Part shown: positions 8,142-60,126 of the stretch, one piece after another
How the letters are laid out: every line of letters begins with the position of its first letter
Position numbering within the stretch: position 1 is the first letter of the stretch
Origin: Lingula anatina
Taxonomy: Eukaryota > Animalia > Brachiopoda
Assembly (NCBI GenBank): GCA_051362555.1
Contig: CM120640.1
Coordinates: forward strand, 186,001-250,000
Length of the DNA: 64,000 nt
Reading direction: 5' to 3'
The notes under the pieces: generated by a model
The model's input: only the letters and a program-made list of their open reading frames with translations
Databases searched by the model: none
Told to the model about the DNA's origin: nothing
Translations under genes and position numbers: made by a program

Positions 8142-8682
8142 TCACTGTATGTTACACCTGGATTGGCCACCTCACTGTATGTTACACCTGGATTGGCCAC
8201 CTCACTGTATGTTACACCTGGATTGGCCACCTCACTGTATGTTACACCTGGATTGGCCACCTTACTGTATGTTACACCTAGATTGGCCACCTCACTGTAA
8301 GTTACACCTGGATTGGCCACCTTACTGTATGTTACACCTGGATTGGCCACCTTACTGTATGTTACACCTGGATTGGCCACCTTACTGTATGTTACACCTA
8401 GATTGGCCACCTCACTGTAAGTTACACCTGGATTGGCCACCTTACTGTATGTTACACCTGGATTGGCCACCTTACTGTATGTTACACCTGGATTGGCCAC
8501 CTTACTGTATGTTACACCTGGATTGGCCACCTCACTGTATGTTACACCTGGATTGGCCACCTCACTGTATGTTACACCTGGATTGGCTACCTCACTGTAT
8601 GTTACACCTGGATTGGCTACCTCACTGTATGTTACACCTGGCTTGGACACCTTACTGTATGTTACACCTGGCTTGGACACCT
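8142..8682. repeat. 30-bp tandem array (~18 copies) copying the TRIM C-terminus and stop codon
   Basis: Unit gattggccacct(c/t)actgtatgttacacctg; the first unit is the last codons of the TRIM ORF. Confidence 0.95.
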
Positions 8683-10556
8683 GGGGGTGGACCTTCCTGC
8701 TCCCCAAACCATTTCTGTAAAACTGTCTGGACATCGTGTATCACTACAACTTGTGGACCACGAGGATGCTCCTGGGCCACGACTAAAGCTCCACCTGGTG
8801 TCAGAGTAACATCACGAGGCCTGTATATACCGTCAGCAATGCCTAAGAACTGTCTTGGCTGCTGAGTGTCACAGCCATCCAGGACACACAGCTGACTATT
8901 GGAGCTGTCTGTAAGGATAATCTTCTCTCCTCTATTATCCATACACAGTCCACCAAGCCTGGCGGTATGCTGCATCCAGCTGGCCAGCATAGAGAATTTC
9001 TTCACCATCTCTCCATCATGATTGCACTTGATCACACACTGGTTATTTGCATCCAATACGTACATGAACTCACCACCGACTGCGAAGTATGTAAGGTCCA
9101 AGTACTCTACAGCATCCAGTGGACATAGGGATTTAACAGCTCTACCATCTATGTCAAATATTTTCACAGTTTTGTTTTTAAATGTGACAAAAATCTGGTT
9201 TTGGTAAATGTTCAGCCCCTGTGGCTTCCCATCTAACCACCCAGTGCAGAGAGGGGTCTGAGACTGGACACTACCCCTGGGGTCATACTGGACACAGGTG
9301 CAGGATACCCTCCCAAGGCCAAGCAGACGAGATGACACTGACAGAGACACAAAGTTATCACCATGAGTACAAAGTCCTACTCTGGTGGGACAGCCGTACT
9401 GGCCAGTGAGGTGACCTTTCATGGTGAAGATGTAGACATGGTCAGAGATTGGTTGGCTGATTGCTATATGCTGGGAGGTGGCAGCTACAAGTAACCCACA
9501 ACAGTCAGTCTTACCTCCTGGTACATGAAATGTATGTTGTACTCTGCAGTCTACAGAGGTATCCTCTAACACCTCCCCCTCTCCCCCTGGCTCTCCCTCC
9601 TCCTCCTTCTCCTCCCCCTCCCCCTCCTCCTCTCTGACCTGCCCCCTTACTGATATCTGCTGTCCCAGAAGACTGTAGTCTCCCTCTACACCTCCACTGG
9701 TGTCCTGAGCCAGGAACTCCTTCAACTGCTGCTCTATACAGTCTGCTAAACTAAGACACTCGGCACTGTGGTTAGACTCCAGAGGGGACAATGCCAGGGT
9801 GACCAGGGTAGCTGCTTGGTCAATCTGGGTGTCAAGATTCTCCAGCTTAGCTGTAATGTTATCCTGGAGAGTTTTATAATGGGATCTCTTATTTTCTAGT
9901 CTCCCCTTCCTTTCTTCTACCTCAGTGATCATCAGCAGCAGTGTGTGGACCCGGGTCTCCATGGCAACCTGGAGAGGTATGACATCATCACAGTATTGGT
10001 GCTGATGCATAGTACACGTCACACAGATACAGATATGGTGGCTGCCACAGTAATACTCCACACGACTCCTAGGGTGCTGCTTACAGTAGAAGCTGTCCCC
10101 TGTCTTGCCTATCTCCTCTGTGTGGTGGTCCCTGGTCACAGACACCTGTCTGTGGAGACGATGACACCTGTCACACAGCTTCTTGTCACACTGAAAACAG
10201 TGGTGGGTGGCAGCAGAGGTACTGGCTTCACTGACAGAGGAACAAATACTGCACTCATCCAGCCATTCCTGGGACCTCCTTCTTGGTTTATTGAGTAAAT
10301 CTCTTACTTTTCCAAGAATGAAATTATCGGGCAGAGCAGCAACACCTCCACTGCCTATCTGAATATCTCGCCTGCATGTCGGGCAGGGAAACTGGCCATA
10401 AACATCCACTAACCGTGTCTGAGCGTAGTCCTCCAAGCAGCCCTGACAGAATGTATGGAGACAAGGCAGCGCTTTGGGGGACACATAGGCCTCAAAGCAG
10501 ATCTGGCAGGTCAACACATCATCCCTGGTCTCCTCTAGAACACTGGCTGTTGCCAT
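8652..10556 (-). CDS. TRIM-NHL-like E3 ubiquitin ligase (RING, two B-boxes, coiled coil, NHL/beta-propeller), single coding exon, 634 aa
   Basis: RING CQIC..LPCLHTFCQGC..CPTCR; B-box1 CSIC..CFQCDKKLCDRCH..H; B-box2 CKQH..YYC..CICVTC..H; NHL-like IILTDSSNSQL, RPRDVTL; 5'UTR acceptor near 10606. Confidence 0.9.
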   Translation of the reverse strand: MATASVLEETRDDVLTCQICFEAYVSPKALPCLHTFCQGCLEDYAQTRLVDVYGQFPCPTCRRDIQIGSGGVAALPDNFILGKVRDLLNKPRRRSQEWLDECSICSSVSEASTSAATHHCFQCDKKLCDRCHRLHRQVSVTRDHHTEEIGKTGDSFYCKQHPRSRVEYYCGSHHICICVTCTMHQHQYCDDVIPLQVAMETRVHTLLLMITEVEERKGRLENKRSHYKTLQDNITAKLENLDTQIDQAATLVTLALSPLESNHSAECLSLADCIEQQLKEFLAQDTSGGVEGDYSLLGQQISVRGQVREEEGEGEEKEEEGEPGGEGEVLEDTSVDCRVQHTFHVPGGKTDCCGLLVAATSQHIAISQPISDHVYIFTMKGHLTGQYGCPTRVGLCTHGDNFVSLSVSSRLLGLGRVSCTCVQYDPRGSVQSQTPLCTGWLDGKPQGLNIYQNQIFVTFKNKTVKIFDIDGRAVKSLCPLDAVEYLDLTYFAVGGEFMYVLDANNQCVIKCNHDGEMVKKFSMLASWMQHTARLGGLCMDNRGEKIILTDSSNSQLCVLDGCDTQQPRQFLGIADGIYRPRDVTLTPGGALVVAQEHPRGPQVVVIHDVQTVLQKWFGEQEGPPPGVQARCNIQ

Positions 10557-13483: not shown

Positions 13484-25823
<12,340 letters not shown>

Positions 25824-27214: not shown

Positions 27215-27355
27215 ATTTACCTGTCTCACTTCTGCCAACAAAACAAAATGGCGAGTTCCATAGGTCACATGATCAGTACGGTAATTCGTGAACCTGCCGC
27301 CAGAGGTCACTCAGTTGTAAACCTTCCAGACAGGAATAAAATTTGTGGTGAGTAT
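27215..27355. promoter_or_regulatory. Putative compact bidirectional promoter CCDC186/TDRD1
   Basis: Minus-strand donor CAG|GTAAAT near 27220 and plus-strand donor GTG|GTGAGT near 27347 about 130 bp apart; YY1-like AAAATGGCG near 27245; CTCF-like CCGCCAGAGGTCAC near 27297. Confidence 0.55.
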
Positions 27356-34073: not shown

Positions 34074-34114
<41 letters not shown>

Positions 34115-37100: not shown

Positions 37101-40100
37101 CTTTCAAGTGGTTCGGCCATATTTAACAGTTAGTCTGCAGATCAATTTTGTTGTGAATACAACCATAATGCACTAATTCTATCTCTTATTTATCAACAGT
37201 TGACATGAGTTCTTTTGTTTTCAATCAATAATTGGTATGTAGAACAATTTATTAGCCATTGTATAATAACAATTTGATGCGTGAAGTATCTTAGATATCA
37301 GTGAAATATGATGTTAAGTTTAATATGCAGTTGAGGTGCGGCTGGAGATGCTGCCTATTGATTTAATCATGTGAAGTCTTGTGTTATCTTGTAGTATTAC
37401 AGTGGTACCACTAACATTGGTCCTGGTGCCTATGTACCATCAGTGGGTGAGGTATGTGCTGTCCAGTATGCAGTGGACGGTGGTTGGTACAGGGCAATGG
37501 TGGAGGAGATCACACTAAATGGCCAGGTCAGGGTGAGATATCAAGACTATGGCAATGTGGAGGAGAGACCAGTGATGTATACCAGGAAACTGCTGCCAGA
37601 GTTCACACAGCTGCCACTACAGGTACTGTAGGAGGAGCCACTGGTGGCCCTTCATCTTCTCGTCACTTTTATTGAGATTGACATCAAAATTCAGGAATTA
37701 TTCGGTTCATTGTATTAGAGTGATAGCTTCACCAGGTGAATTTGTGGTTACAGGTGTTAAATGGTGCAGTTGTTTACGATGAGAAGTTCTTATTGATTTT
37801 TGTGTCCTGTTTGCAGGGTATGCGTTGCTGTATAGCTAATGTAGCGCCAGTCCAAGGAAGTGACTGGAGTGACCATGTGACCAGTGAGCTGAAAACAGTT
37901 GTAGACAGTCTGGGAGGGTTGTTTGACGTCGTTTGTGAACAAGTTGTTAATGGAATAAGTCATATACAGCTGCTGACAGAGGAAGGAGGTGAGGGGTTTG
38001 GTGGGCACAGGAGTTGAGAATCTCTACTGAAACTTACGTGATTTATTTTCTTGATTTAACTGATTTTGTCCTTTGCTATGAAACCATTTGATTTTACTTT
38101 CCTTGATAACTGTAAAGACAGCAGGAGACTTAAATGGCTCCTGACAAATTTCAACTGCAATTCAGCATTTCTAGTTGCTTTCAAAACATGTTTATTGACA
38201 TGAAGTTAACTTTAAGTCCTCTTGGAATTTGCTCTGGTAAATGTAATCATGTCATTTTGTTCTTTATTGATGAAGTACGGCAGTGAGTATATTTGCTCGC
38301 AAAAGTAGTCTAACAGACAGGACCTCGCATTAAAAACTGTTAATATTGCTCATTGTACATAGGAAATGTTGGAGAGGCCTTGATCTACCAGAATATGGCA
38401 AGACAGTCTTCAGAGGAAGTGCTGTATGATGCTGCCCTGGCAACTTCCTCAGCAGAGACTGAACAGAATATGGCAAGGCAGTCTTCAGAGGAAGTGTATG
38501 CTGCTACCATGGCAACTTCCTCAGTAGAGACTGAACAAAATATGGCAAGGCAGTCTCCAGAAGTGCCGTATGCTGCCCAGAAGACAACCCTCTCTGTGGA
38601 ATCTGAACAGTGGGGACAGTCACCAAACAGGTAACCCTGACAGTACATGTATCTGCTTTATTGATATAAACTGCTCAGGAGGAATACTTCCATGGAGGAG
38701 AATATACCAGCTGTTACAAGGAAAGTGGAATGAAAATTTTACTTGTAAATACCTGAGTAAAATGTGTTTCATTAGAAACAGGTAGGATAGTGATGGTTTA
38801 TTTATCTGTTTAACATGTTAAGAAAAGGTAATGGACAGAATGTCATGGAAATCTTTCATTTCAGTTCTACCTCGCTGGACACTATATATCTTAGTCTCCT
38901 GCAGTCTGCGCTGTCCATGCTGAAAATAAACGAGCCATTTGATGCAGCAGTATTCCACATAGAGACGTCTGAAGTGTTCTATATTCACCATATTGATGAA
39001 ACCTTTGTGGCATTGAGTCTAGCCATGAATGAAAAATACAACACCATGTCTACACAGCAGACTTACAGGTAACTTGTGTTGTTAATAGTCCTATGTTAAA
39101 GCTGTTTAATTTTAAACTGTTCCACTTGATTTCCTCTGGTTAAGTTTTGCCAAGAAACAATTCTCTTGTCATGGAGCTATTGATTAAGTATTACAGATAA
39201 ATTTTGTTTTCAATAATTTGTCCTGTGGCATCTTCAATTAAAATAAGTGAGCTCAGGATGATTTGATAGAAGTAACAGTTTGGTGATATATCCCCACAAT
39301 TTCTTCATCTACTTGTATCTGCAGGTTCAAGTCTGGTGATATGGTGGCAGCCCAGTGGCAGGGGGCCTGGTACAGAGCTCTGGTGCTGGCAGATATGGCA
39401 TCCACATCTAAGGTGTTCTACTTGGATTACGGGAACACAGAGGAGGTCAGCAATACTGCCATACGCCCCCTGCTGGAGGATTTTGCTGACCACCCACCTA
39501 AGGCTATCAGGTGCAGCCTGGCAGGGGTGAAGATTTGGGCAAAAAACCCTCAGGTGCCCCACGCAGTCCAACAGGTGCTCCAGGAGAAGCTGGTAGAGAA
39601 AGTAGTCAAGGTTAACATGGTGTCCACTGATGATAACAGAGCTTTGGTTAAACTGACACTTGATGATGGAACAGACGTTGGACGTTTTCTGGTGGACAGT
39701 GGATTTGCTACATGTACTGACACCAACCAAGTCACAGAACAAAGTGAGGAGTCTAATATGTCGCCATTGGTGACTGCCCAAACAAAAGAGAGCCCGAAAT
39801 CAGCTACGTCCCCCACACTGCCAGTAGTGAGGAGAGGAGCCAGATCTCCACTTTCCTGTATCACTAGTGAACTGTCTCTACCACCTGTGTCAAAGTCTCC
39901 ACCCTGTGTGTCAGGAGCAAGATCACCTCTGTCTGTGTCAAAATCTCCACCTTGTGTGTCAGGAGCTAGATCACCTCTGTATGAAGACCGTAGTCCAAAT
40001 TCTTCGTCTAATGTGCTCAGAGCTAGAACTCCTCCATCCCCAAGACCTGCTGTTACTGGGGCCAGAGCACCGGCATTTCCCAGAGACACTCAAAGAAAGA

Positions 40101-43100
40101 GAAGCTCAAATGTCAGAGATGCCCCATCAAGACCAAGGTGTCTGACCCATGTGGACCTCCCAAAGTTGGAGCTGCCAGAAGACAGGGAGTTCCCACTACT
40201 GTTAGTGCATTGCGTCAGTCCCTGGGAGTTCTTCATCTGTCTGCCTGATCTCATTGAGAAAGTGGCTGAGTTAGAGGTAAGGCTCCAGACGCATGCTCTC
40301 ACAGATCACCATCCTCATCGTCCTGAGGTTGGCGAGGTGGTCCTGGCGCAGTTCACTGATGGTGTCTGGTACAGAGCCATGGTACAGGCAGACCAGGGTC
40401 CTCAGATAGGGTATCAGGTCTACTTCTGTGACTATGGCAACACGGAATATGTTCAAACAGCTAACATCAGGAAAATTCTGGAGCCAGAGTTAGTGACAGG
40501 GTATCCCCGCCAGGCCTATCAGTGTAAGCTGGCCGGGGTGAGAGAGGTAAATAAAGAGAGCAGTGTAAAGGCTGCTGAGGAAATGAAGACAATACACCCT
40601 GGGTCAATACTGGTCAGAGTTGTCAGGAAGGAAGGAGAGGTATACTCTGTGAATTTGACTACACCAGACGGTGACTCCATGGCCCACTATCTCACAGGTC
40701 AAGGACTTGTGGCAGGTACTGAAATATCTGGAAGTTTTTTCTAACCTTTTATCTTTCTAGGATGTTATCAGTTTAAAATTTTAACACAGCCAATGGACAT
40801 TTGATACTTGCTGCAGTACAAAGACAAAAGTTTTACACCGTTATTATCAGATGTAATGATTTTAATGCAAAAGCAGACTAAACTTGAATGTTCTTAAAAT
40901 TGGTAAAGCTTGTTTTAATAAGACTCAAACCATTCCAGTGTCGGACCTGGTCCCTCACCCAGACAGTGCCTTCCAGCCCATCCAACCAGCTGTGTGTACA
41001 GCACTGCCAGCACCTGAACCTAGAGTTATGACATATGATCTGATCAAAGCTTCATTGGATTCTTCTGTTACCATGGTGATAGTTTGTAACCCAGACTCCT
41101 CACCAAAGCTGTTTTATTGTTGGAATATGTCCAAACAACAAGGTATATAATGGTTTCCATCTGAATTAAGATGATTTCAGTTAAGAAGTATTTATTCATT
41201 GGAATACTTCAACACAGTTATGATCAGCCTAATTAGACTTTTGAATAGAGATTTTATTCAAATCTCACTTCTATTTTACTAGCTTTTGGCTGTGGCTTAG
41301 TATGTGCCTGTATATATTAGGCTTTTCTTTAATCTTTCTAAGCATGATATTATGTTCCCTCTGTCTAGATATATTAGTATGTGCCTGTATATATTAGGCT
41401 TCCCTTTAATCTTTCTAAGCATGATATTATGTTCCCTCTGTCTAGATATATTAGTATGTGCCTGTATATTAGGCTTTTCTTTAATCTTTCTAAGCATGAT
41501 ATTATGTTCCCTCTGTCTAGATATATTAGTATGTGCCTGTATATATTAGGATTCCCTTTAATCTTTCTAAGCATGATATTATGTTCCCTCTGTCTAGATA
41601 TATTAGTATGTGCCTGTATATATTAGGATTCCCTTTAATCTTTCTAAGCATGATATTATGTTCCCTCTGTCTAGATATATTAGTATGTGCCTGTTCATAT
41701 TAGGCTTTTCTTTAATCTTTCTAAGCATGATATTATGTTCCCTCTGTCTAGATATATTAGTATGTGCCTGTATATTAGGCTTTTCTTTAATCTTTCTAAG
41801 CATGATATTATGTTCCCTCTGTCTAGATATATTAGTATGTGCCTGTATATTAGGCTTTTCTTTAATCTTTCTAAGCATGATATTATGTTCCCTCTGTCTA
41901 GAAATGCAAGAAGTTGTGACATTGAAGGACAGACTTGGTGAGGTCTATGAACATGTTCACCCGGACCCTGCCTTCAGACCCCTGGTAGAAGAGATGTGTG
42001 TTACCTTTGCTGAAGGTGGGTGTGGCAAAGTGATATTCCATTGATCATCAGAAATACTTGTTTTCAAGTGTACTTATCATTTAAGCAAGTGACGTTTCCT
42101 CACTGGGACTTTATTGATGTGTAGATTATACTTCTTAGTGAAGATTATAATTTCCTGGTTCCAGGAGAAGATGGTGGGTGGTCCAGAGCAGCAGTCCAAG
42201 CAATACTGCCAAACAACAAGTACAAGATATTTTATGTGGACTTTGGACAAGAGGATGTGATCCCAGGAGATAAACTGTACCGTATAGAACCTCAGTTCAC
42301 CACACTACCTCTCCAAGCTATTAAGTGTGCCCTGTCATATTGTAAGTGTAAACTGTACCATATATAGAGTCTCAATCCGAACTTTTTTATGTACAGACAC
42401 TGGCAATCTGTTCTGGTCATGCTTTAGAAAGTAAAAGGTTGTTGTTTTAGATTTTTAAACTTTTCAGTTTCTACACGGACTTGAGATGTACCTAAACAAA
42501 GCTTTCAGTTACTACTGTTACCCTTCTCAAATTGAAAAGTTTAAATGTCTAAAACAACCAAAAGACTACGCAGATGAATTTCCATCAAATGAAGTGTTCT
42601 TGATCTGAATTGATGTGCCTAGAATGCAACTGTTACAATAATGTTGGCATTTTTATCGAAAAAGTTACAAAAATGATATCATTCATTTACAGGCTTCCAC
42701 TCTGAAAGTCAGACTTTCCCTCCACAAGCTGTTGATAAGTTCAAGGGCTTGGTTCAGGGGACATTACTGCAAGCCAAGCTGATAGGCACCAAGAATATGA
42801 CTCATTATGTAGAGCTCTGTGACCCCAAAACTAAGGTAGGTTGCCATTATTATGATGGATTGTTTTCTTTTGTTTCATAGATTGGGCTCCATATTTATAC
42901 TTATTGTAACAATGTGATATTGCTATATAAGTTTCTTCTCTTGATTCTTAATTAGAAAAACATTGGGTCAGAACTTGTCAAGATAGCTACAGATTCCATC
43001 ACACAAAGACCAGATAACAGGGGTACTTTAAGCCAACTACCAACATACAATGCCAACAAACCAGAGTTTCAGCAGAATAGAAGAACCGGTGATGAAGATC

Positions 43101-44476
43101 AAAGTATCCGTGGCAACAGACAAAAGTCTTTTTCTGGAAATAGACATCAAGGAATATCTGATAAATCTCAGCAAGATGGTGGCAACAAAAATAGACCCCA
43201 GGATCAGATGTCTGCTGGTGGAGATGCGGGAGCCAAAGCTTTTATTGATCGATTAAACCAAGGAGGAAAGCCGTCTGGATATCAGCAAAAGTCTGGTCAT
43301 CAAGGCAGTCCAGACAGACGACAAAAACAAAGCAGTCAGAAATCTCCAGGGCCGAGAAACAAACAGCAGAAATCTCCAGAATCAGGAAACAAACACCAGA
43401 AATCTCCAGGATCAGGAATCAAACAACAGAAATCTCCAGGACCAGGAATCAAACAGCAGAACTCCCCAGGCAGATCTTATGGAGGTCAACTGCCAGATGT
43501 GTCTGCCCAGCAACAGTCAGGTCGCAGTCCACTGAACTATCCCCCTAACAAAACTTCACAGGTGAAAGGTCATGGCCCAAGACCTTCCCCACAACAAGCT
43601 GACAGATCTCCTGTAGGCAGCTCCTATCACCAACCTTCACATGTGACAGGCTATGAACACAGTACTGCCACAAAACCTTCCCCACAACAGGCTGGTCCAC
43701 ACCCCTCAGTTAACACCTCTCACATGCCAGAGCACCAGTCAGATCCTGGGCTTAGGGACTCTACTGCACCAGGCCGAGTGCAGTCAGGACGCAGCCCATT
43801 CAATGTACAAACTCCGCTGCCACTGGAGGGCCCAGGCTATGGGCGCAGTGTGTCAACCACACCGATTCCACAACTATCTAGTCACAATACAGTAGATTTC
43901 CCACCTCAGCAGGATTTTCAGGGTCGAGGTCACCAGGAGTATCCTCTAGAGCAGCCATTACGACCTCAAGGATACAATCCATACTTCAGGAGTTATCCAT
44001 CCCATAATTACCAGGCCAGGAGGTATGAGAACCCAGCTGACTACAGGGAGGAGTACAGAGAGATGCCAGCATATCACTATGGTAACTACCCTCCCAGAGG
44101 AGGCTATAGAGGGCACCACTATAGAGGAAGAGGAGGGTTTCACCATAGATACTCACAGCCACTTCAGCCAAGTAAGAAAAATTCTTTAATCAGTGATAAT
44201 GTATACTGTAGCTGTTGTGTAGAACATCTTGATAAATCATTTGAAGTTGTAACTTGAAAGTAACATGTACATGTACATTTGTACCTTCTCAAAAACTTTG
44301 GTTTAATCTTAATCAAAATTCAAGGAATGAAATAGAAAAGTAAACGCCTCATTCGTTTATAAAGCCTGATATATTCTGTTGCTGTTTTAGGTGGTCTGGA
44401 GCAGAGACTGGAGAGACTGGTGGCACTCCTGGAACAACAGCAGCTTCTCCAACTGCAGCAACACCAAGACAAATAA
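29655..44476 (+). CDS. TDRD1: TDRD1/Vreteno-like piRNA-pathway protein: RRM + MYND zinc finger + 4 Tudor domains + low-complexity tail
   Basis: RRM RNP2 LYVVGIP (30200-30263) and RNP1 FGFVKY (31102-31199, 31732-31870); MYND CLKCGGPG/FLRCGACKSPYCSPACQREDFSEHKVQC (33808-33900, 34129-34225); Tudors DGGWYRA..YQDYGN (~37394-37622), GAWYRA..YLDYGN and DGVWYRA..FCDYGN (39325-40715), DGGWSRA..YVDFGQ (41902-42341); last exon 44391-44476 ends TAA; symbol supported by adjacency to CCDC186. Confidence 0.85.
30286..30614. repeat. 47-bp tandem array (7 copies) starting ~22 nt after a TDRD1 donor
   Basis: Unit tactctgtctacatggcacagttgtatgatggtgatattattactga. Confidence 0.95.
31205..31450. repeat. Degenerate ~27-bp tandem repeat immediately after a TDRD1 donor
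   Basis: Recurring agaaactggaactctatagatagctgt. Confidence 0.8.
31925..32591. repeat. C-rich intronic minisatellite (G-quadruplex-like on the - strand)
   Basis: Recurring caccaacccccagccattatccctctcccccacccc; the Pro-rich ORFs over it are artefacts. Confidence 0.9.
33561..33753. mobile_element. MITE family copy (internally deleted)
   Basis: TTA-GACTGGGTTCC...GGGAATGGTCCT-TTA. Confidence 0.8.
34209..34295. repeat. 30-bp duplication of the MYND-exon donor
   Basis: cagtgtaagacaatcag|gtaagatcttctg twice, 57 bp apart. Confidence 0.85.
34965..35187. mobile_element. Full-length MITE copy with TTA target-site duplication
   Basis: TTA-GGGTGCATTCCC...GGGAATGGGGTC-TTA; close match to 28751-28976. 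Confidence 0.88.
41297..41902. repeat. 75-77-bp tandem array (8 copies) ending at a TDRD1 acceptor
   Basis: Each unit has tgttccctctgtctag|A; only the last opens the exon (EMQEVVTLKDRL). Confidence 0.95.
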
Positions 44477-44712
44477 CCAGCACTATTCCAGTCCATAGAG
44501 GGCGCCACCAAGTCTCTAATAAATAGCAGTAGCCCATTTGATGGAGGGCGCCACCAGGCCACTAATTAACACCAGTAATCCAGTTAATAGAGGGCGCCTA
44601 CAGATCACTAATAAACAGCAGTAGCCCAGTGCATAGAGGGCGCCACCAGGCTACTAATAAACAGCAGTAGCCCAGTGCATAGAGGGCGCCACCAGGCCAG
44701 TGCATAGAGGGA
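44476..44712. repeat. Degenerate ~45-bp repeat starting at the TDRD1 stop codon
   Basis: Recurring ccagtgcatagagggcgccaccagg..ctaataaacagcagtag. Confidence 0.8.
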
Positions 44713-47559: not shown

Positions 47560-48203
47560 CTTAATCCACACGAGCTGTGTGACTCTGTTTCAGAACGTAC
47601 AGGCTGCGTAATAGATGACTGGTTCAATACGATAGCTATGTCTCGAGAAGTCCTATGGTTTGGAATCTAACATTGAAAATGACATCATAAAATTAAGGTA
47701 ATTATTGACATGATTTTTTAACCTTGAAAAGAATGAATAAAATCTGAATTTTCGGTATAATTCATTGGAATAAAAATTGCTTGGTTTTATGTCTGGAGAA
47801 GACCTGTCGTCTTCCGATGCCAACCCTCTATTTCTAACTCTCGAGGTGAAGGTCGTATAAAGCGGGAGTTTTCAAGATGGCGTCAAAAAGATCATTGTCA
47901 GGCGGTGGAAACGCGCTACTTATATGATTAAGACGAGCCTAGCCGTCAGTACCGGATATTGTTTTGTGACCTTGAGGAGCAATTAGGTTTGGTCTTTGCG
48001 GCACGCATGAACAGTAGTCGAACTACCACACCTGGGTCTTTTGTTTTTGACAACTGTTCACTCGTCATCGAGGCGCTTGTTCAAGACTACAGGCTGATAT
48101 CTACTAGTACTACCAGTGGCTTCATTAGTAACGTTCCCACAATACTTAGTTTTCTGTCTGTGCGTACATACCCTGAAAAAAGCCAGCCTCGCTGACGAGA
48201 ACA
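47560..48203. promoter_or_regulatory. Putative bidirectional promoter BRF2/HAUS8
   Basis: Divergent start codons ~640 bp apart; CpG-richer; YY1-like AAGATGGCG near 47874. Confidence 0.5.
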
Positions 48204-51200
48204 ATGGACGTTTCTCACCCCTCTCTAGGATTACCCCTGTCATTGTATCAGCCAGCACAGCAAGATACTGTTGGACACGGTTTTAACAGGTATTTATACA
48301 TTATTTTGATTCATAACAAAAGGTAATGCTGTAACACGTATGTTGATCACAGAAACTAGGCAACTGTGATCTATCACTCGCCAAGCCGTCGATATCAATG
48401 AAAGTGAATCTGAATATTCGAACGTAAACAGTAAATTTTATTTGAGTCTTTCTGTATTTTACCGTGAAAATTAGTGTCTGTAATTCGGCATTCTCACAAT
48501 TCCACAGAAATGTGGCACAACTTAATCGCTACTGACTTCTGCTTGTCATGTAAAATGTAATCCTACTATGTTATTCCTACCAGCTAACTCGACGCTGCTG
48601 TCCATTTTCAATGTTGTCTAGCCATAATATCCTCCAGTACTACTGCCTTTTACCTGTTTTTTTTTTCATTTGCAGGAAACCACTCACACAGGGAAGACTT
48701 ATATCCCAGTCTGACTCTGCATTAGGAGCTGAGATTTCACAAACTGAAAGCCCATCACAGAGGTTATATAAGCCAGGTACAGTAGCCTCACACTGAACAT
48801 TTCATCAGACGCTAGAGATTGTTTACTTGGGTTCAAGAATTTGTGAAGTTAGTTAAAAACTGATTGAAATATTTCAAAGTTGAAAGTGTATCTTATATCA
48901 ATCTAGCATTGATTTGGTGAAGGTAGTTACATGGCTGAAGCAAGTTTTGTTCTAAGAGATGTAGAAAGGTGTTGCCTTAGAGTTCATTTTGTATTTGTGA
49001 GTCATGGGGAACTTTGTGTGTCGCCAACTCAGAATTTAAGAAAATCTGTACTTTATTTCATATTTCAGGCACAGATGGAAGTTACAAAGTGAGCTATGAT
49101 GGAAGCAGTACAGGAGATCTTTCTCCCAGACAGAAGTTGAGTAGCCATAAGAAAGTCCATGCAGACCACCAAGTAGAGGATGTATTATCTAGCCCAAGAA
49201 GGTATATACATACATACATACATACATACATACATACATGCACATTCTGTTTTAGCCACCCAAAAGTGGTCAAGGTAACTGATGTAAAATAAAACATGAT
49301 GAAACTGTTCTCTTTATGTACACTAAGTAACAGTTTCAACCATGGTGAATAATGTGATTATTTTTGTGTAATTTTTGTGAAATGTGTATTTTTTGCATTA
49401 AAATGTATTGGATAGAAAACCATTTTGTTGAAGATTATTTGTCAGTGGTGAATTCAAGTTTCATTCACAGTTGTAAGAGCCCCTTTTAAAAAACAATAAT
49501 GTAGTAAATTAATGAGGTACTTTGCTTGTTTCAGAGCTCAACCAAATCAAACAGAACACCATTCTCCGAAACGTGTCACACCATCCAGACTATTAGAATT
49601 ATCAGACAGTGATGATGAAGTGGCATTTAAAACAAGAGTGAGTTATTAGATGCTGTTCACATTGCATCTGATTAACTGTTCATAGCAGTTGAGTACCTTT
49701 CCATTTTGTTTTTACTCTTAGTAACTGTGCATTACCAGCCAAGTATAGTGTGATTCTGCAGGAAGACAACAGACCAACACCATGTGGTATCATGTCAGTC
49801 TCTGTGTATATCCTCATAGTGTGTTGCAATCACTGTCCCCCATGTTACTGGTTTTCTCACTTCCAGAGATCTCCCCGTGTAATGCAGCACATCAAGCACA
49901 GTCCAGCGCCAAATGTCCTGGTAGTGGACGCGTCCAGACAGACCAGACAGCCTCTGGACACAGAGGTGGACATCCACATGGGGTTTGAACACTCCCCTGT
50001 CAAAGTGATCTGCCACTCCCCGGGGGCCGTACATTCTGACCTCAGGTAATGAGAGGGCTGGATTATGATCAACTTCCTCCCCCTCCCCTCCTCTCTCTCT
50101 CTCTCTCTCACATACACACACACACAACATGTATATGTGTTTTTTTATATTTATTTATTATTGGTTCACAAATTAGACCTTTTTAACAGGTTTGTCAAAA
50201 TAATGAGACATTTGTACCCCATTAAAATACTTATTTTTGAATTTTGTGCATGTGCTGAAAAAAACCTAAAGCTTTCATCACCTAAGCATTTTTATAAAGA
50301 AGAACAATTCCAAATGATGATTATTCAGACATTACAATCTTGAAGCATCTTTTCCCATATTTCATCCCCCAGGAACACAGGGGACACTGCAGCAGCCAGG
50401 AGGGTACAGGTGGACCAGGTCCCCTCTGTGAACATATTGTCTGGGAACACAGATATCCCACAGTCAGACCAGGAGAGAACAGGACACCGGTTTAAGTCTC
50501 CTATGGTCATCAGAGAGGCTGCAGTGGCAGGTAAGTAAACCACAAGTTCTGTCTCCTGTCTTTGTCAGAAAAAGACATAAGGGCAGATTAAGCCAGGTGT
50601 TGTAACTGTTCTTGAAATCTAAACTGGCATCAAATTAACTGTCTTAGCTTGTTTGCCTGAATAACAATAACAGGGGATAATTCCCACTCGTTTTGATATT
50701 CTTAACTTTCAACTGGTGGCTATATAAAAGAGAAATGACAGTTAGGTGTCTAGGCAGTGTCAGGGCCTTGTCTCAGTGATGACTGGTGGTGTTGTTACAG
50801 GTGTCATTAGAACCAGTGTACTAGCATAGTGAACCACTGCTTTTATTATGATATCACAATGTTCCATATTTAAGGTGGCAAGATTGACCATCATTCTGCA
50901 GTGGAGACAGTGGATACAACTGACCACTTGACCAGGCCAATGAGGGAGGACCTTCAGTACCAAACTTACAAGCAACCCAGAGTAACCATAGGAGATAGTG
51001 GAATACCAGGAGTGGAGCCCCTCCCTCAGAGTGACACTGCCTCTGTGGACGAGGTGTACCATGAAGTAAAACCTAAGTAAGTACACATGTACTGATGACT
51101 TACACCAGTATAGTATAGTATAGTTTATTGCCGAATCAACTTGACATAGGTATATAACCAAGAAAACAAACATAACATTTGTGGTAGGTGCAGGTGGTGG

Positions 51201-51249
51201 TGGCAACCACTGTTAACACATTGGAATACATAAAGAGTGGTGGATGGAC

Positions 51250-51308
<59 letters not shown>

Positions 51309-54300
51309 AAAACACACACAGAGTCGGGCAAAATGACCTTTATTCCTCAGAATCTAGAAAACTATAAATAAGTAGAACAGACAAACTCAATATTAATAGA
51401 TTGGATCATAAATAAATTAAACCATTTCTGCAACAGATAATGAAAAGTCCCACCACTTGCAACCGAGTTAAGATAATAAAAACTCCTGAAATTGGAAAGG
51501 GAAGGGTGGGTGGGAGAGCAAAGCAGAATAGGCTTAAACAGCAAGGTCGGTGTGCTAACGCTAAAAATTATGCATGTTTCGGCTGGCGGCGCTAAACAAA
51601 GACTGCCCCAGGAGTGAAAAATTAATAGGGCCTACAAAGTTAAGCTGAATGACCATTGGCCACGCTACCGGATGTTTTTCACGTGGCCTAGTTACTTAGA
51701 ACTGATAGGACAAAACTTGTTTTTCACATGACTAGTAACAACCCTGGGAAACAAAGGCCAGCTGCAGGCACCTTCCCTGTGTGTGCTTTTAAATACTCCT
51801 TATTCTAAGGGGGCACATATATATAAGTAAAACCTAAGTAAGTACACACGTACTGATGAGTTATACCATGAAGTAAAACCTAAGTAAGAACACATGTTCT
51901 GATGAGTTATACCATGATGTAAAACCTAAGTAAGTACACATGGATCATTAAAGAATCAAAAGTGTACGACTTGTTCAATGAAGTTAAGATTAATGATTAA
52001 ATATGTCTTGGTAAAAAGATGTCTTCATTGTACCATTTTTTCTAGGTTGAAGGGTTCAGTGGTAGAGCCATCAGCAAAGAAGGAAAAGAAAAAACAGTCA
52101 AAAGGTAATCAATGAAGCAAGAAGGAACAGTATATCATCTTTACACTGCTGATGTTTTTCTTACATCACTGAAAACACTGAAATCATTTATTAATTAATT
52201 TTGTTGCTAAAACTGTGAACAGTTCTATCCCTGTGTTGTTAATAGTTCTGTCCCTGTGTTGTTAATAGTGCTATCCCTGTGTTGTTAACAGTTCTATCCC
52301 TGTGTTGTTAACAGTTCTATCACTGTGTTGTTTACAGTGCTATCCCTGTATTGTTAACAGTGTTATCCCTGTGTTCTTAACAGTGCCTATCACTGTGTTG
52401 TTAACAGTGCTATCCCTGTATTGTTAACAGTGTTATCCCTGTGTTGTTAACAGTGCCATCCCTGTGTTGTTAATAGTGCTATCCCTGTGTTGTTAACAGT
52501 ACTATCACTGTGTTGTTAACAGTGCTATCACTGTGTTGTTAACAGTGCCATCCCTGTGTTGTTAACAGTGCTATCCCTGTGTTGTTAACAGTAGTATCCC
52601 TGTGTAGTTAATAGTGCTATCCCTGTGTTGTTAATAGTGCTATCTCTGTGTTGTTAACAGTTCTATCCCTGTGTTGTTAACAGTGCCATCCCTGTGTTGT
52701 TAACAGTGCTATCCCTGTGTTGTTAACAGTTCTATCCCTGTGTTGTTAACAGTTCTATCCCTGTGTTGTTAACAGTGCCATCCCTGTGTTGTTAACAGTT
52801 CTATCCCTGTGCTTACAGAGAGAATTGTACCCTCCAGATACATGCAGAGTGGGACATCATCCAGACACAGAGGACAGGTAAGCACTGCACTGAGGAGATT
52901 TCACAGGCTTTTTAACTTAAGAGAATGTGTGATTCTGTACTATTAGTGAATATTACTTGTTTTCATCATCCATGATGATTTTTATTTATCTCTTTGAAAA
53001 TGTCATGATATATGTTACATCTATGAATTTGTAGACATTTAAAATATTACTTATAAATGTCATAAAAATCTTATATTTAAACTAAATACTTACTGCCATG
53101 GTCAGCCCATAAGGCTTGTCAGCATTCTCTGCCATCTTCTCCTAATATGTATTGTTGCTGTGCTGGCTTATTTCAGTCATTGGTTGGTAAGAGTGGTGCA
53201 AGGAGTAGTGCCACAGAAACAAAGAAGACACATAAAAGACCAGTTGTCACCAAGAAACGTACAGCCCCAGACTTCAGCACCACTCCCATGGTGAGAGGGG
53301 TGTCCAAGATGGCCTCCACCCCTGCGGTTGACACATCCTCTTACCCTCAACCAGGACCCATTGATGTCTCCGCCATTGCAGCAGATGTTCCACACCTGAG
53401 CATGGCAGGTAAGTAAACCCTCTGCCAAAACCCATTGATGTCTCTGTCATTGCAGCAGATCTCCCACACCTGAGCATGGCAGGTAAGTAAACCCTCAGCC
53501 AAAACCCATTGATGTCTCTGTCATTGCAGCAGATCTTCCACACCTGAGCATGGCAGGTAAGTAAACCCTCAGCCAAAACCCACAGTTGTCTCTGTCATTG
53601 CAGCAGATCTTCCACCCCTGAGCATGGCAGGTAAGTAAACCCTCAGCCAAAACCCACAGTTGTCTCTGTCATTGCAGCAGATCTTCCACACCTGAGCATG
53701 GCAGGTAAGTAAACCCTCAGCCAAAACCCACAGTTGTCTCTGTCATTGCAGCAGATCTTCCACCCCTGAGCATGGCAGGTAAGTAAACCCTCAGCCAAAA
53801 CCCACAGTTGTCTCTGTCATTGCAGCAGATCTTCCACACCTGAGCATGGCAGTTAAGTAAACCCTCAGCCAAAACCCACAGTTGTCTCTGTCATTGCAGC
53901 AGATCTTACACACCTGAGCATGGCAGGTAAGTAAACCCTCAGCCAAAACCCACAGTTGTCTCTGTCATTGCAGCAGATCTTCCACACCTGAGCATGGCAG
54001 GTAAGTAAACCCTCAGCCAAAACCCACAGTTGTCTCTGTCATTGCAGCAGATCTTCCACACCTGAGCATGGCAGGTAAGTAAACCCTCAGCCAAAACCCA
54101 CAGTTGTCTCTGCCATTGCGGCAGATCTTCCACACCTGAGCATGGCAGGTGGGCAGTACTTAGTGAACTTAATTACTGGGCTTAAAGTAAGATGTCAGGA
54201 AGATGTTTGAGTATGAATGTTGATCTCATCTTATGGATTGGTACATTTGAAAAGTGGCATGGATTATATTTTATTAAACCTTAGACAAGAATATTAATCT

Positions 54301-55465
54301 TAGCTAAAGCTTTTCATTGTATGTTTTCCTTCAGGACCTCCAAGCAAACCTACTGCCGCAGTCTCAGTCCAAAGACCTCCGAGTAAAACTTTATCTAGGA
54401 CAAAACATAAACAGCCAAAGAATGTGTCAGTGAAGGAAGAGTCAACTCGGGAAATGAGTTCACAGCATTTATTGTCAGCTTCTGTTGCTACCCAGGATTC
54501 TGCCTACTCATCACACTCTCAGTCTCACACGACAAAGAAGGTAAATATGACAACATTTATCATGTGTCTGTAACTACCCAGGATTCTGTCTGCTTCTCAC
54601 ACTCTCAGTCTCACACCACAAAGAAGGTAAATATGACAACATTTATCATTAGTGTCTGTAACTACCCAGGATTCTGTCTGCTTCTCACACTCTCAGTCTC
54701 ACACCACAAAGAAGGTAAATATGACAACATTTATCATTAGTGTCTGTAACTACCCAGGATTCTGTCAGCTTCTCACACTCTCAGTCTCACACCACAAAGA
54801 AGGTAAATATGACAACATTTATCATTAGTGTCATCATTAAGATTCTGCCTATTCTTTTATCTCTTTGTAATCAACATTGCGGTATTTCAGAAAACATTCA
54901 TAGTTTACTCTTTTAGTAGGTTAAAACTTATTTTATACATTCATGTTAAACATCTCTGTGATAGGGATTATAGATAGAGAGAAATGGTTTTTATGTAAGT
55001 TTTGATTTAAAGAACTTATGGAAGGCATCAAAACTAAACTTCTGTACCAAAATGCAAATGAATACAACATCATAAAGATTTTAAATTTTTTTATTTTTTA
55101 GAAGTCTTCCCCTTCTCGAATCACTCAGGAATCTCTGGACCTTCAGTATGCCAGGTATTTACAGTGGGTGTTCCTGGAAACTAAAGCAAAGAAGGAATTT
55201 CAGGAACAGGAGAAGCAAGTCGTGGTATGTACAGGTCCAGTTGACTGTAACATTTAACAGGCACTGTTATTATTCAATTTTGTTGATATGAAAACAGTTT
55301 TAAGGCCATATAACATGTTCTGTAGTATTTTTCCTCCATCTTTAACTACTGTCGTAAATTCATTGTGTTTTTCTCAATTAAGGTTTAAGTATTGGAAATA
55401 TAATAGAACAGTTTTATTCCTTTTAATGGATATGAAGAGATGAAACAGTGTTAAAGATTTTTTTT

Positions 55466-55528
<63 letters not shown>

Positions 55529-57047
55529 TGACATATGTGATTGTCTCCAGGCACAGTTGTATGGTTTGTGGGAAGAAAACCAAAGGCTGCTACAGAAAAA
55601 GGCAGAAGTGGAGCAGACATATGAACAGCTGAAGCATGCAAATAAACTGGATGAATTGCTCGAATTGCAGGTATGCAAAAGGAAACTCAGAACTGCTGGA
55701 ACTACCAGATGGTTATGTTATACACTCAGAAGTACTGGCACAACCAGATGGTTATGTTTTACATGAAAGTTTAGATATCAATAAAGAATACCTCACAATA
55801 GGAAACAAGTTTCTTGTGAATTTTATGCCAGTTTAAATAAAAACCTTCCTTAACTACAGCAAGCTTGGCAATTTTGCAATAACTATTAGTCATTGTACCC
55901 ATGTTGTTAGTTGAAAAGTGAACTACTTGCCATCCCATATTACAGAAGGCTGGTTTAGGTCCAGTAGCAGCTAACCTGCCTGGCCTGAGGCAGCAGTACA
56001 GTACTCTGGCCCAGGCTCTGGACACCACACGGCACCAGATACTGTGTAGAGGAGTACATATCCCAGACAATGAGGAGGACTTCCAAGGTATTGACCTCTT
56101 TGGCCCCATTCAGAAAAGCAGACTTACTAGTCCGAGGATCAAATATAGTAACCCACTACAAAGCCTGCTGTCTTATCCACTTATAGACACTGAATAGATA
56201 TCCCGTGGGGAAGTATTCAAGCGGGTCGGCCATATTTGACCCTCAGACATGTTAGTCCCTATTTTGAATAGGGCCTATAAAGGACAAAGTGATAAGGTAA
56301 ATAAAGGTCAAAAATTAGGTCTATATGCCAAGCTTATAAAGTCATGAAGGTCAAGGTCAGTGAGGTCATTAATATCGTGGTTGATTGTGTCCCTGTATTC
56401 CACTTGGCACCAGTGTGATCACTGCATCTTAGCTGGCTTACATATTTCTTTTCTTGGTTACAGTATCATTAAAACCCATGCATACATTTCATTATAATCG
56501 TGGCAAAGTGTATAGCACCACATTTCTTAGTTTTAGTCTATTATCATAAGCGTTGAGTCAGGGAGGGCCGTGACATCTAACATTTGTTCTTGGGTTTTAT
56601 AAATTATGTTACATGATTTCAGAAGCTATGTTATCAGCACTAGCAGAGAGCGAGCAGCTTCTTGGGGAACTTAGTGTAATGACGCGGCAACAGCAGCCTA
56701 AAGTGACCTCTTTTGCTAATGCGATCCAAGCTTTAGAGAAAGCAGTTGATGAAGAGAGTAAAGAACTCAAAAGGTATATCTTCACATTTGTAAAATAATC
56801 ATAACCATTCACTGCTGAGTCACCAATAACTTCTTATAGTGTTATGTGGCATGTATTGTATTCACATATACAAGTCCAATAATCACATAGTTGTACAATT
56901 GAATACAGAGAAAGACAAATACAGATGTTAATTAATTCACTTTATTTTTTTTTCAGGTGTCAGGAAATGCAGGCAGCTGTACAGACTTTAGCCACTCAAG
57001 AAAGCTCCCTGAAAATACAGGCCGTTCAGATCAGAGACGAGGAATGA
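48204..57047 (+). CDS. HAUS8: HAUS augmin-like complex subunit 8 (Hice1) with a long low-complexity N-terminus
   Basis: RIVPSRYMQ motif (exon from 52819); LDLQYARYLQWVFLETK; LAQALDTTRHQILCRGVHI; coiled-coil C-terminus. Approximate exons: 48204-48289, 48676-48776, 49069-49201, 49534-49637, 49867-50045, 50373-50530, 52046-52104, 52819-52877, 53177-53408, 54335-54540, 55102-55224, 55550-55670, 55946-56087, 56623-56773, 56957-57047 (TGA). Confidence 0.8.
51057..51942. repeat. 46-bp tandem repeat (1 + ~3 copies) interrupted by a ~720-bp insert containing (TA)n
   Basis: aagtaaaacctaagtaagtacaca at ~51064 and again at ~51826, ~51872 and ~51918. Confidence 0.75.
52218..52818. repeat. 23-bp tandem array (~26 copies) ending at a HAUS8 acceptor
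   Basis: Unit tatccctgtgttgttaacagt(g/t)c; final copy gtgcttacag| opens the RIVPSRY exon. Confidence 0.93.
53343..54150. repeat. 74-bp tandem array (11 copies) spanning a HAUS8 donor
   Basis: Donor positions at 53409, 53483 ... 54075, 54149; unit is ~66 nt of exon end plus gtaagtaa. Confidence 0.95.
54488..54831. repeat. 86-88-bp tandem array (4 copies) spanning the next HAUS8 donor
   Basis: AAGAAG|GTAAAT at 54541, 54627, 54715, 54803. Confidence 0.95.
55470..55525. repeat. (GT)n microsatellite
   Basis: Seen directly. Confidence 0.95.
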
Positions 57048-57125
57048 GAAATGAATGACTTTAGCCACTCTTGAAAGCTCCCTGAAAATACAGGCCGTTC
57101 AGATCAGAGATGAGGAATGAGAAAT
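56984..57125. repeat. 73-bp duplication containing the HAUS8 stop codon
   Basis: gactttagccactc...gaggaaTGAgaaat x2. Confidence 0.9.
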
Positions 57126-59133
57126 TAACATCACCCGCAAATTTCATTGACTGTAGACAGCTACTTGACTTATATTTTAACTTGTCTAAAGGGAAGGAAT
57201 TACCATTACTTCAATGTTTTGTCTAAATGTATTTCTTGCAAGAAGACATCAACTGTCAACTTTGACTCAGAAAACAGCCCAGATGTTGAGGCCCCCCCCC
57301 TCCCCTCGCTCCCGTTATAAACCAGTATAACTGGAAGCCAGAACTATTTCCTCAGCATCATCACTTACATTGTTTTCTGACAAAATAGAATACCTTAGCC
57401 CCCTAGTACATAGGCAATTGCAAATTTGACTACAAAGTCTGTTACATTATATCAAAATATGTATTTATTTCACTGACATCTGTGGACTATGTACAGAGAC
57501 CATATTACTGACAACATATTGTATACACTGAAGTATTCACACAGCTATAAAATACAGATATGGAAGAACATATATAGGTAATGCTTTCAAGTAAAATAGC
57601 ACAGATTATTTTCATTTCAAATTTCTGTGTGCAGTTTGTGATGTATACAAAGAACTGCACTGGCTTTTGGCCAGGGGTGATGTAGAAAACGTTCCAATAA
57701 TTTTGTCAAGAATGTCTCCCTGTACTGCATGCATTCTTGTAGTTGACTGAACTACTTTTTCAACTTTTTTTAGTCAGAGTGGCATTTGGATAAAACATTT
57801 TAACACTTCACAATACAATACATTATTATACTATTCAATTGCACAGTGTAATTAGCGATCCTTTTAAAATATTCAAAACTATATTTTGTGAAAGGACTAC
57901 CAAACTTGGAAAAAAAGAAAGAACAAAACTTGGTCTTCAGTAAAATAACAAGAATAACAATACATCACTCAGCACCTAATACTTCCCATATCTCCTTAAA
58001 ACTTACTACCTTCAAACTAGATGATCTGAAAGACAAATACATATGTATTGAAGTTATGCTGGATTACAAAATTATTTCAGGGATTGGATAAAAATAATCC
58101 AAGAGATATTCACTGTGAAGTGTGACCATAAAGAAAGAGAACAGACTATATTCATATATAAGCTTAAAGCATGGAAGTATTCATACAGCACTTACAAAAA
58201 ATATAGCAATTAAGTAACAGGCCATCAACAGACAAGTGCATATGTTACTTGCATATACAGAGAACAAGCATATCTACACAAGAGTGTTAATATACCTCTT
58301 AGTTTGTTGGATTAGAAAATCTTTTCTATAGAATATTGTACAAGTACTGACATGTCAGGCAATGTTCATTTTCTATTGACAGCCCAGTCCATAGCCTTTA
58401 CCATGGCAGTGTAAGTTTTTACTTAATACAAACAGAAAATGAAGTCATTATTTTACCCTTGCTACTACTGTCCTACAAGGCTCTGTATATCCCTGAGCAT
58501 CACATTTATGTCATAAGCTATTGCACCCTTTACGCAGCACTGCAAGGACGTTAAGATCAAATACAACTGTCACAGACATACCACTTCACAAACGTTGGAC
58601 AACTCACGGTTAACATTTGAATTAATTACAATGAACATGACCAGTTTCATGTGTATTGCTTGATAAGAATGCACTGCCATGTAGATATAACTACACCTCA
58701 GGGCAACGATCATCTTGTTTGACCACTGGTCGGTGTTAATGACATCCACTGTGATCACCTTCGCTACAAAAATATATTGGATTTCTGGATCGATTAACTT
58801 ATTATGATACAGAGCTAAATCACATCCTAATTTTGTGCATAATTCTTGTCTTTGTCAACTGTACTTACTGTTGATTGTTGATTACTCTAGTAATCATGCG
58901 ATACTTGGCACAAAACAGCTTATAAAAATATCTTGAATAAAAGTAAATGCAATACTCAAGCTGAATTCTGAAAGACAAGCTACTGGGGATATCCTAAATA
59001 ACCCCAAGCATAGTTCCCTTCCTCTTCAGGGGTGGATCCAGAATTATTTGAAGGGGGTCTGCAGGGTGGGGTGCAGGACCCAGTGAGGGCAAAAAATATA
59101 TTTGGGTATTTTAGAGGGTGAAAGGTGCCATTT

Positions 59134-60126
59134 GGGTCATCCTATGATTTCCAGGAGAAGAGGAGGGAACTCTATATCTGTATGGGTCATCCTATGATCT
59201 CCAGGAGAAGAGGAGGGAACTCTATATCTGTATGGGTTATCCTATGATCTCCAGGAGAAGAGGAGGGAACTCTATATCTGTATGGGTCATCCTATGATCT
59301 CCAGGAGAAGAGGAGGGGACTCTATATCTGTATGGGTCATCCTATGATCTCCAGGAGAAGAGGAGGGGACTCTATATCTGTATGGGTCATCCTATGATCT
59401 CCAGGAGAAGAGGAGGGAACCCTATATCTGTATGGGTCATCCTATGATCTCCAGGAGAAGAGGAGGGAACTCTATATCTGCATGGGTCATCCTATGATTT
59501 CCAGGAGAAGAGGAGGGAACTCTATATCTGTATGGGTCATCCTATGATCTCCAGGAGAAGAGGAAGGAACTCTATATCTGTATGGGTCATCCTATGATCT
59601 CCAGGAGAAGAGGAGGGAACTCTATATCTGTATGGGTCATCCTATGATTTCCAGAAGAGGAGGGAACTCTATATCTGTATGGGTCATCCTATGATCTCCA
59701 GGAGAAGAGGAGGGAACTCTTATATCTGCATGGGTCATCCTATGATTTCCAGGAGAAGAGGAGGGAACTCTATATCTGTATGGGTCATCCTATGATCTCC
59801 AGGAGAAGAGGAGGGAACTCTATATCTGTATGGGTCATCCTATGATCTCCAGGAGAAGAGGAGGGAACTCTATATCTGTATGGGTCATCCTATGATTTCC
59901 AGAAGAGGAGGGAACTCTATATCTGTATGGGTCATCCTATGATCTCCAGGAGAAGAGGAGGGAACTCTTATATCTGTATGGGTCATCCTATGATCTCCAG
60001 GAGAAGAGGAGGGAAATCTATATCTGCATGGGTCATCTTATGATCTCCAGGAGAAGAGGAGGGAACTCTATATCTGCATGGGTCATCCTATGATCTCCAG
60101 GAGAAGAGGAGGGAACTCTATATCTG
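59134..60126. repeat. 50-bp tandem array (~20 copies) copying the nuclear-receptor AF-2 helix and stop
   Basis: Unit gggtcatcctatgatctccaggagaagaggagggaactctatatctgtat encodes DIEFPPLLLEIIG* on the - strand. Confidence 0.95.

Follow-up and report, generated by a model that had tools for sequence, protein, structure and literature searches.

Why should minisatellites of unrelated sequence lie across the edges of coding sequence? This question is raised by a stretch of 64,000 nt from the brachiopod Lingula anatina (assembly GCA_051362555.1, contig CM120640.1, positions 186,001 to 250,000 of the forward strand), referred to here as the window, in which private tandem arrays span numerous splice sites and stop codons. 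A first-pass annotation of the sequence had proposed a duplication process anchored on coding boundaries. The window is Lingula anatina DNA: the open reading frame (ORF) at 45761-46873 is 98% identical to the TFIIIB 50 kDa subunit protein of this species. Two further ORFs, 8652-10556 and 50904-51074, are 96-98% matches to Lingula RefSeq loci that neighbour each other, so the window represents a haplotype other than that of the matched records.

Excess of arrays at coding edges

Arrays were called by Tandem Repeats Finder (TRF) with default settings, by relaxed TRF and by self-BLAST of the window. The counts exclude arrays whose period is below 20 nt, as well as a low-complexity coding tract at 9572-9645. 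The 31 arrays that remained range in period from 23 to 97 bp and together occupy 11.3 kb or 18% of the window. Seventeen overlap a coding edge, namely six acceptors (including the borderline array at 41297), seven donors and four stops, so that acceptor arrays are about as frequent as donor arrays. Five arrays are located 7-49 nt from an edge, five in intron interiors, and four within coding sequence in frame, all of the latter with a period that is a multiple of 3. The tandem unit crosses the exon-intron boundary in 13 arrays, with 41297 as the borderline case (AG included, 0-1 exonic nt). Copies are mostly 90-100% alike and bear patterned variants. In the self-BLAST of the window the units were unrelated to each other, and the one dispersed family that was found does not overlap the arrays. 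Hence, the units do not belong to a transposon or satellite family, and the earlier view that a process, not a repeat family, is at work stands.

Seven genes were recognized in the window: an SLC6-like fragment, TRIM-NHL, CCDC186-like, MYND/Tudor, BRF2, HAUS8-like and a nuclear receptor. Edge arrays occur in five of them. The exon models consist of reading frames without stops, joined by GT-AG introns and one GC-AG intron. The 60 modelled introns have a median length of 330 nt, and the GC content is 47% in exons and 34% in introns. In the null model an array is represented by a single unit, for which random positions of matched length are drawn, excluding placements wholly within coding sequence. 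Because the introns are short, about one quarter of random non-coding placements in genes span an edge and the expectation is not small.

Under this model 17 of 26 arrays span an edge compared to 6.3 expected (simulated P about 1e-6). Counting 41297 as non-spanning and lengthening the units by the partial copy gave 16/26 versus 7.1 (P 1.7e-4). The weakest test, restricted to arrays that span by default TRF (three dropped), still yielded 13/23 versus 6.2 (P 0.002). With corrected models and 5' untranslated region (UTR) exons, 16/27 arrays were spanning versus 4.4-6.9 expected (P 3e-7 to 1.3e-4). The excess is thus about 2.3-3.7-fold, and the edge enrichment asserted by the first-pass annotation holds within the window. 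Expressed per kb of possible 55-nt placements, the density is 2.45 for spanning arrays (n=17), 0.42 for non-coding arrays (n=9) and 1.1 for in-frame coding arrays (n=4), the last value even after selection on the protein.

Individual arrays and splice-site use

The largest cluster is found in a coiled-coil gene on the minus strand (13484..25823; 18 coding exons, 964 aa; open ORF, GT-AG introns and RNA joints), which from its sequence we take to be CCDC186-like. It contains eight edge arrays and one interior array. The acceptor arrays are 86 bp x7 over 15692 (15636..16244, 8-nt terminal microhomology), 97 bp x2 over 16755 (16704..16904, 8-nt microhomology), 50 bp x9 over 17158 (17143..17588, eight intact decoy acceptors), 79 bp x2 over 19250 (19247..19403, 1-nt filler) and 58 bp x4 over 21407 (21377..21609). 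At donors we found 26 bp x2 over 17079 (17037..17087, 1-nt filler), 59 bp x5 over 21195 (20951..21251, 6-nt microhomology) and 87 bp x7 over 22830 (22215-22840). The last of these forms a feature at 22100..22840 together with an older echo of the end of the exon, now decayed, at about 22112-22180, whose score was matched by 0 of 2000 shuffles but which was picked by eye and post hoc. All eight were called by TRF except 16704, which was found by self-BLAST. The interior array, 40 bp x17 without assigned strand (23763..24440), is 344 nt away from the nearest coding edge.

In this gene RNA reveals which copy is spliced. The joints 16754>17078 (16704 and 17037 arrays; 28, 15 and 17 reads), 19246>19570 (19247 array; 17, 17 and 32 reads) and 21406>22829 (21377 and 22215 arrays; 35, 15 and 10 reads) were each covered by 10-35 reads in three RNA runs from three studies under the same species label. 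Their shorter sides of 67-75 nt exceed the repeated exon parts and therefore place the joints on the innermost copies. The innermost copy is also used by joint 20447>21194 (20951 array; 10 reads in one RNA run, X18), and loose read ends at 15695 and 17159 (15636 and 17143 arrays; one RNA run, X15) run on into the upstream exon. Thus, in RNA evidence comprising 15 of 36 joints, the innermost site appears at all eight edge arrays of the gene, either as a joint or as a loose end.

Across 41000-60999 splice use is based on the frame and the RefSeq model. The RefSeq HAUS8-like model takes the innermost copy at the three spanned donors (the first copy at the 53343 array), and for 34225 and 41902 use of the innermost copy was deduced from the frame alone. 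Across all 13 splice arrays 52 decoy sites differ from the used 9-mer by at most one mismatch. Despite these near-identical decoys, splicing takes the first donor and the last acceptor. Repetition outward from the exon, previously taken as evidence, is automatic once the innermost site is used and provides no separate support.

The RRM-like/MYND/multi-Tudor gene model on the plus strand (29655..44476; 24 coding exons, 1847 aa) has an open ORF with 22 GT-AG introns and one GC-AG intron, the latter required after exon 36899-36994. Pfam MYND and Tudor were matched on single exons, and when a full-length Tudor protein of Lingula was sought, only distant relatives were returned. Three arrays follow donors at short distance: 47 bp x7 (30286..30614), 22 nt past donor 30263; a decayed 27 bp x8 array (31215..31438), 15 nt past donor 31199; and a C-rich array of 41-48 bp (31920..32591), 49 nt past donor 31870. 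A 57 bp x2 duplication with 83% identity over donor 34225 (34187..34303) was detected by relaxed TRF only. The intronic 77 bp x8 array at 41297..41902 ends on the AG of acceptor 41902, with seven intact decoy acceptors and a 4-nt filler, and a decayed 46 bp x5 array (44472..44699) covers the modelled stop at 44474-44476. All four in-frame coding arrays belong to this gene (30 bp at 35721-35833, 72-75 bp at 38389-38609, 48 bp at 39885-39980 and 30 bp at 43325-43470), and an interior intron array of 36 bp x2 (36115-36186) lies among them. Just past the donor of the Tudor exon ending at 42341, a decayed echo of part of the exon was observed at 42271-42375 (shuffle P 0.0005, picked by eye). A 46 bp x2.6 array without assigned strand (29000..29118) is located inside a 5' UTR intron and adjoins a copy of the dispersed repeat.

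The HAUS8/augmin-8-like gene (47877..57047, plus strand; Pfam QWRF, RefSeq LOC106176487) matches XP_023933475.1 at all edges that bear arrays, while three corrections were needed at other places. Its donor arrays are 46 bp over 51076 (51048..51942), 74 bp x11 over 53408 (53343..54150, eight near-identical decoy donors) and 88 bp x4 over 54540 (54462..54832; TRF, RefSeq model). A 73 bp x2 duplication with a 4-nt filler spans the stop at 57045-57047 (56984..57125). The exon at the first of these donors, 50875-51076, is required for the frame and present in XP_023933475.1. Here the first copy is followed by an insert of about 730 bp (51100-51824), of which the window holds no second copy, and then by three more copies (51825-51942). 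The insert splits the array and is therefore younger than the first duplication. The 23 bp x26 array at 52214..52811 ends 7 nt before exon 52819, and its unit lacks the acceptor AG.

A 39 bp x2 array (55685..55763) starts 14 nt past donor 55670. In another Lingula protein sequence, P0018, the exon that ends at 55670 is followed immediately by six units of 13 residues, whereas the window has two 39-bp units there. This is independent support for the array and for copy-number variation, the difference concerning this one near-donor array as seen through a predicted protein. P0018, from the cluster of XP_023933475.1, is a 1413-aa record in which two allelic HAUS8-like copies are fused and six units of the intronic array are translated. 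The record is an annotation error that such repeats have caused.

Two arrays on the minus strand cover stops of further genes. In the TRIM-NHL gene, whose single coding exon (8652-10556) has the C-terminus of the RefSeq Lingula protein P0013, a 30 bp x18 array spans the stop at 8652-8654 (8142..8682) with the extra copies in the 3' UTR. In the nuclear receptor gene, which has a Pfam Hormone_recep match on an upstream exon, a 50 bp x20 array spans the modelled stop at 60083-60085 (59133..60126). Both were called by TRF. Two interior intron arrays without assigned strand follow, 36-38 bp x4 at 60763-60921 (11-nt microhomology) and 35 bp x13 with 100% identity at 61010-61472 (8-nt microhomology). 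On the plus strand, antisense to the nuclear receptor intron, an AG and a donor-like site (CAG/GTAAC) occur together with a short open frame between and behind these two arrays (60921-61490). A hidden exon at this position, if real, could turn both into edge arrays.

In comparison with the first-pass list, default TRF reports an array on or close to the named edge position in 15 of 17 cases, while 16704 was recovered by self-BLAST and 34209 by relaxed TRF. All four stop arrays (8142, 44472, 56984, 59133) do span stops. Among the acceptors 15636, 16704, 17143, 19247 and 21377 are spanned, 41297 is borderline on the AG, and 52214 stops 7 nt short. Among the donors 17037, 20951, 34187, 53343 and 54481 are spanned, as is that of the 22215-22840 array, whereas 22112 is the decayed echo beside it. 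The arrays near donors at 30286 and 31205 were correctly recognized, but those at 31920 and 55685 had been overlooked, as had the coding arrays at 35721, 38389, 39885 and 43325. Of the arrays assigned to deep introns 23763, 60763 and 61010 remain; 51057 spans a donor, and 29000 and 36115 were missing.

The dispersed family is a partly palindromic repeat of about 250 bp, resembling a miniature inverted-repeat transposable element (MITE), with eight copies in the window (4743-4888, 6184-6438, 20667-20924, 28325-28621, 28748-28974, 33604-33755, 34962-35186 and 61760-62010). The copy at 20667 has a summed contig depth of about 32,000 in DNA run X1. The arrays at 20951 and 29000 begin about 25 nt from the end of a MITE-like copy. 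Two gene pairs are arranged head to head with very short spacing, CCDC186-like/Tudor (27219-27347) and BRF2/HAUS8-like (47559-47877). An Rfam scan of the window gave 0 matches.

Junctions, selection and competing explanations

Microhomology of at least 6 nt (6-11 nt) was found at five array junctions, two of them in intron interiors, with a chance of 0.003 per junction. Five other junctions contain a filler of 1-4 nt, and several are blunt or too decayed to be called. The microhomologies listed in the first-pass annotation (TATCAACA, TTTCATAA, AAACTT) are present. They do not mark edges, however, as the interior arrays at 60763 and 61010 have 8-11 nt as well and five arrays have filler instead. 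Because microhomology occurs at both, the duplication chemistry is alike at edges and interiors. The available text of Schimmel et al. 2021 (PMC8355091) traces duplications of less than 100 bp to break repair, and the junctions fit end-joining at staggered breaks as described there, or slippage, which yields microhomology too. The exonic fraction of the unit ranges from 0.01 to 1.0 and is not distinguishable from uniform (KS P 0.29). RNA-templated (retro) duplication is argued against by a search of all modelled exon-exon junction 16-mers against the 31 arrays, which returned 0 matches.

We interpret the arrays as minisatellites of the type called mirages in amphioxus, arising because exon DNA and its immediate surroundings are duplicated at a higher rate and the products pass through a selective filter; the probability of this interpretation is in our estimate roughly 55%. 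Error-prone repair of staggered breaks, or slippage, would first produce a two-copy duplication of 25-100 bp whose junction has either microhomology (6-11 nt) or a filler (1-4 nt). The rate of this step would be several-fold higher where exon sequence, with its 47% versus 34% GC, is involved. Duplications wholly within coding sequence would then persist in frame only, which the four coding arrays partly show, and those over a start codon would be absent. Duplications of a splice site would be tolerated, the spliceosome taking the copy beside the unique exon. Those of a stop codon would leave the protein unchanged and be the most frequent per site. Finally, the array would grow and shrink as a variable number tandem repeat (VNTR) through unequal exchange or slippage, as is partly shown by the copy-number difference.

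Per site, 4/6 stops but 13/120 splice sites (Fisher P 0.003) and 0/6 starts (P 0.06 versus stops) are spanned, in a post hoc contrast based on six stops. The order of stops, splice sites and starts is the one expected from selection, because duplicating a stop has no consequence, duplicating a splice site is somewhat risky and duplicating a start introduces an upstream ATG. Selection cannot lift edges above neutral intron interiors, where the density is about six times lower; consequently, a mutational or persistence bias is still needed.

Several points weigh against this interpretation, among them the post hoc nature of the contrast just given. A single window was analysed and it was chosen for showing the pattern, so the P values overstate the genome-wide case. 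Eight of the 17 spanning arrays are located in the CCDC186-like gene and are not independent events. The edges in the Tudor and nuclear receptor genes were placed by frame continuity and Pfam alone. Of the non-spanning arrays in genes, 5/9 lie within 50 nt of an edge compared to about 30% expected, which is not significant, and this lean is not required by an exon-seeded process. At 101 array-free splice boundaries no clear excess of old decayed echoes was detected (3/101 scored beyond the 99th percentile, and most of these were microsatellites; Mann-Whitney P 0.04). The 1-4 nt fillers could be decay at the end of the outer copy. Low-level use of decoys is possible, as mRNAs spliced at outer copies are mostly frameshifted and could be degraded; 11/13 splice-array periods are not a multiple of 3, which compared to 8.7 expected is not taken as a signal in itself.

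The alternative that survives best, although we regard it as unlikely, is that arrays are born uniformly and persist or expand unequally. Intron interiors would turn over fast in a polymorphic genome, and arrays on a conserved exon would last longer or grow by allelic recombination paired via the exon. The heterozygosity of Lingula, given as 1.6% in the accessible part of the genome paper (PMC4595640), is in line with this idea, and RNA reads from other animals differ from the window at many positions. Innermost copies are often unlike the homogenised outer ones (53343, 54462) and an older echo adjoins the 22215 array, which suggests that some edges keep or regain arrays. However, edge arrays (2-20 copies) and interior arrays (2-17 copies) overlap in copy number, and decayed echoes are not in general excess. 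Moreover, deletion of all outer copies should be equally harmless at an edge and in an interior. By this argument persistence would account for a density gap of about 2-fold rather than the observed one of roughly 6-fold.

Somewhat more doubtful is the coupling of breaks at exon boundaries to transcription, splicing or chromatin, for example at nucleosome edges or R-loops at splice sites. Such targeting would agree with the 22/26 non-coding arrays in genes that reach an edge or lie no more than 50 nt from one (12.2 expected), with the array at 41297 ending on the AG, and with the 39-bp units directly after the exon in P0018. A cut placed at the splice site is nevertheless argued against by breakpoints that are spread rather than heaped there, by the absence of spliced sequence from all units, and by the per-site rate of spanning, which is higher for stops inside last exons than for splice sites. 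In addition, interior arrays share the junction signature. Of the two explanations offered in the first-pass annotation, exon-seeded duplication thus fits better than the boundary-targeted one.

It is improbable that the window is merely an unusually rich outlier with a weak bias genome-wide. Its choice for the pattern, the concentration of half of the events in one gene and the weakest P value of 0.002 leave room for this, but the pattern was found in five of the seven genes and under every null that was tried. An assembly or polishing artefact is highly improbable: the copy numbers rest on the assembly and short reads, and the window itself may derive from X1, the best of the DNA runs, but the copies bear patterned variants, X1 short-read contigs begin or end inside arrays (8612, 22761, 23864, 24410), the summed X1 depth over the 8142 bin is 346 versus about 95 adjoining, RNA covers the 3' UTR bin 8000-8663 in 3/3 runs from three studies, an independent gene model has the 39-bp unit six times, and amphioxus mirages were confirmed by resequencing according to the portion of PMC3902484 at hand.

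Relation to known minisatellites and meaning for Lingula

Minisatellites at exon boundaries have been published before (PMC3087553, PMC3902484, PMC1557585), contrary to the novelty suggested by the first-pass annotation; a genome-scale count was not found in the literature searched. In the passages available, the amphioxus mirages comprise Adh3, the globins BflGb6 and BflGb9, troponin C and PGBD5 (Ebner et al. 2010, PMC3087553; PMC3902484). They are called possibly general in cephalochordates, with a mechanism that is 'unclear'. As in Lingula, unrelated units of 10-160 bp lie over donors or acceptors, decoy AG/GT are kept and splicing is normal. Their copy number varies between haplotypes and edge copies escape homogenisation. 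The Lingula arrays differ by their brachiopod host, by 13 splice-site arrays in 64 kb and by a measured excess over chance. The stop-codon class and the junction microhomology are not mentioned in these passages.

The human boundary VNTRs described in the consulted text of Borensztajn et al. 2006 (PMC1557585) are F7 IVS7 (37 bp x5-9), 6-16, CBS IVS13, lamin B2 and PDGF. In the F7 type, too, the first unit lies over the exon-intron boundary, identical pseudo-donors follow and the most upstream donor is used; first-donor scanning was shown for F7. These are isolated genes with donor arrays only, whereas Lingula also has acceptor arrays in which the last acceptor is used. The end-joining duplications of Schimmel et al. 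2021 are likewise shorter than 100 bp, with or without microhomology at the junctions. They were obtained in mammalian cells with Cas9 nickases, and the parts consulted mention no exon-edge bias; for Lingula this pathway is a candidate. Searches of open-access literature, supplements excluded, revealed no genome-wide account of edge-spanning minisatellites, no stop-codon class and none for Lingula, and such repeats are not mentioned in the accessible part of the Lingula genome paper. The window thus presents a known repeat type as an enriched cluster in a new phylum, to which it adds the density (18% of the window), the measured bias and the stop-codon arrays.

Mirages have so far been reported gene by gene, and a dense genome permits the first real test of exon edges as duplication hot spots, with the contrast among stops, starts and splice sites separating mutation from selection. 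Acceptor ladders with up to nine identical 3' splice sites, of which the last is used, test acceptor choice and complement the donor work on F7. For the tandem-duplication model of intron gain the arrays provide raw material. They also mislead gene prediction, as in P0018, where six units are read as protein, and break short-read contigs beside exons. Tentatively, and at somewhat less than even odds, we propose that a genome-wide process in Lingula duplicates DNA across coding edges at several times the rate of intron interiors, leaving about one in ten splice sites and most stops with a private minisatellite. If this is true, the genome would contain thousands of ladders, each made up of identical splice sites, and would serve as a natural experiment on how splice sites are chosen and how introns are gained and grow.

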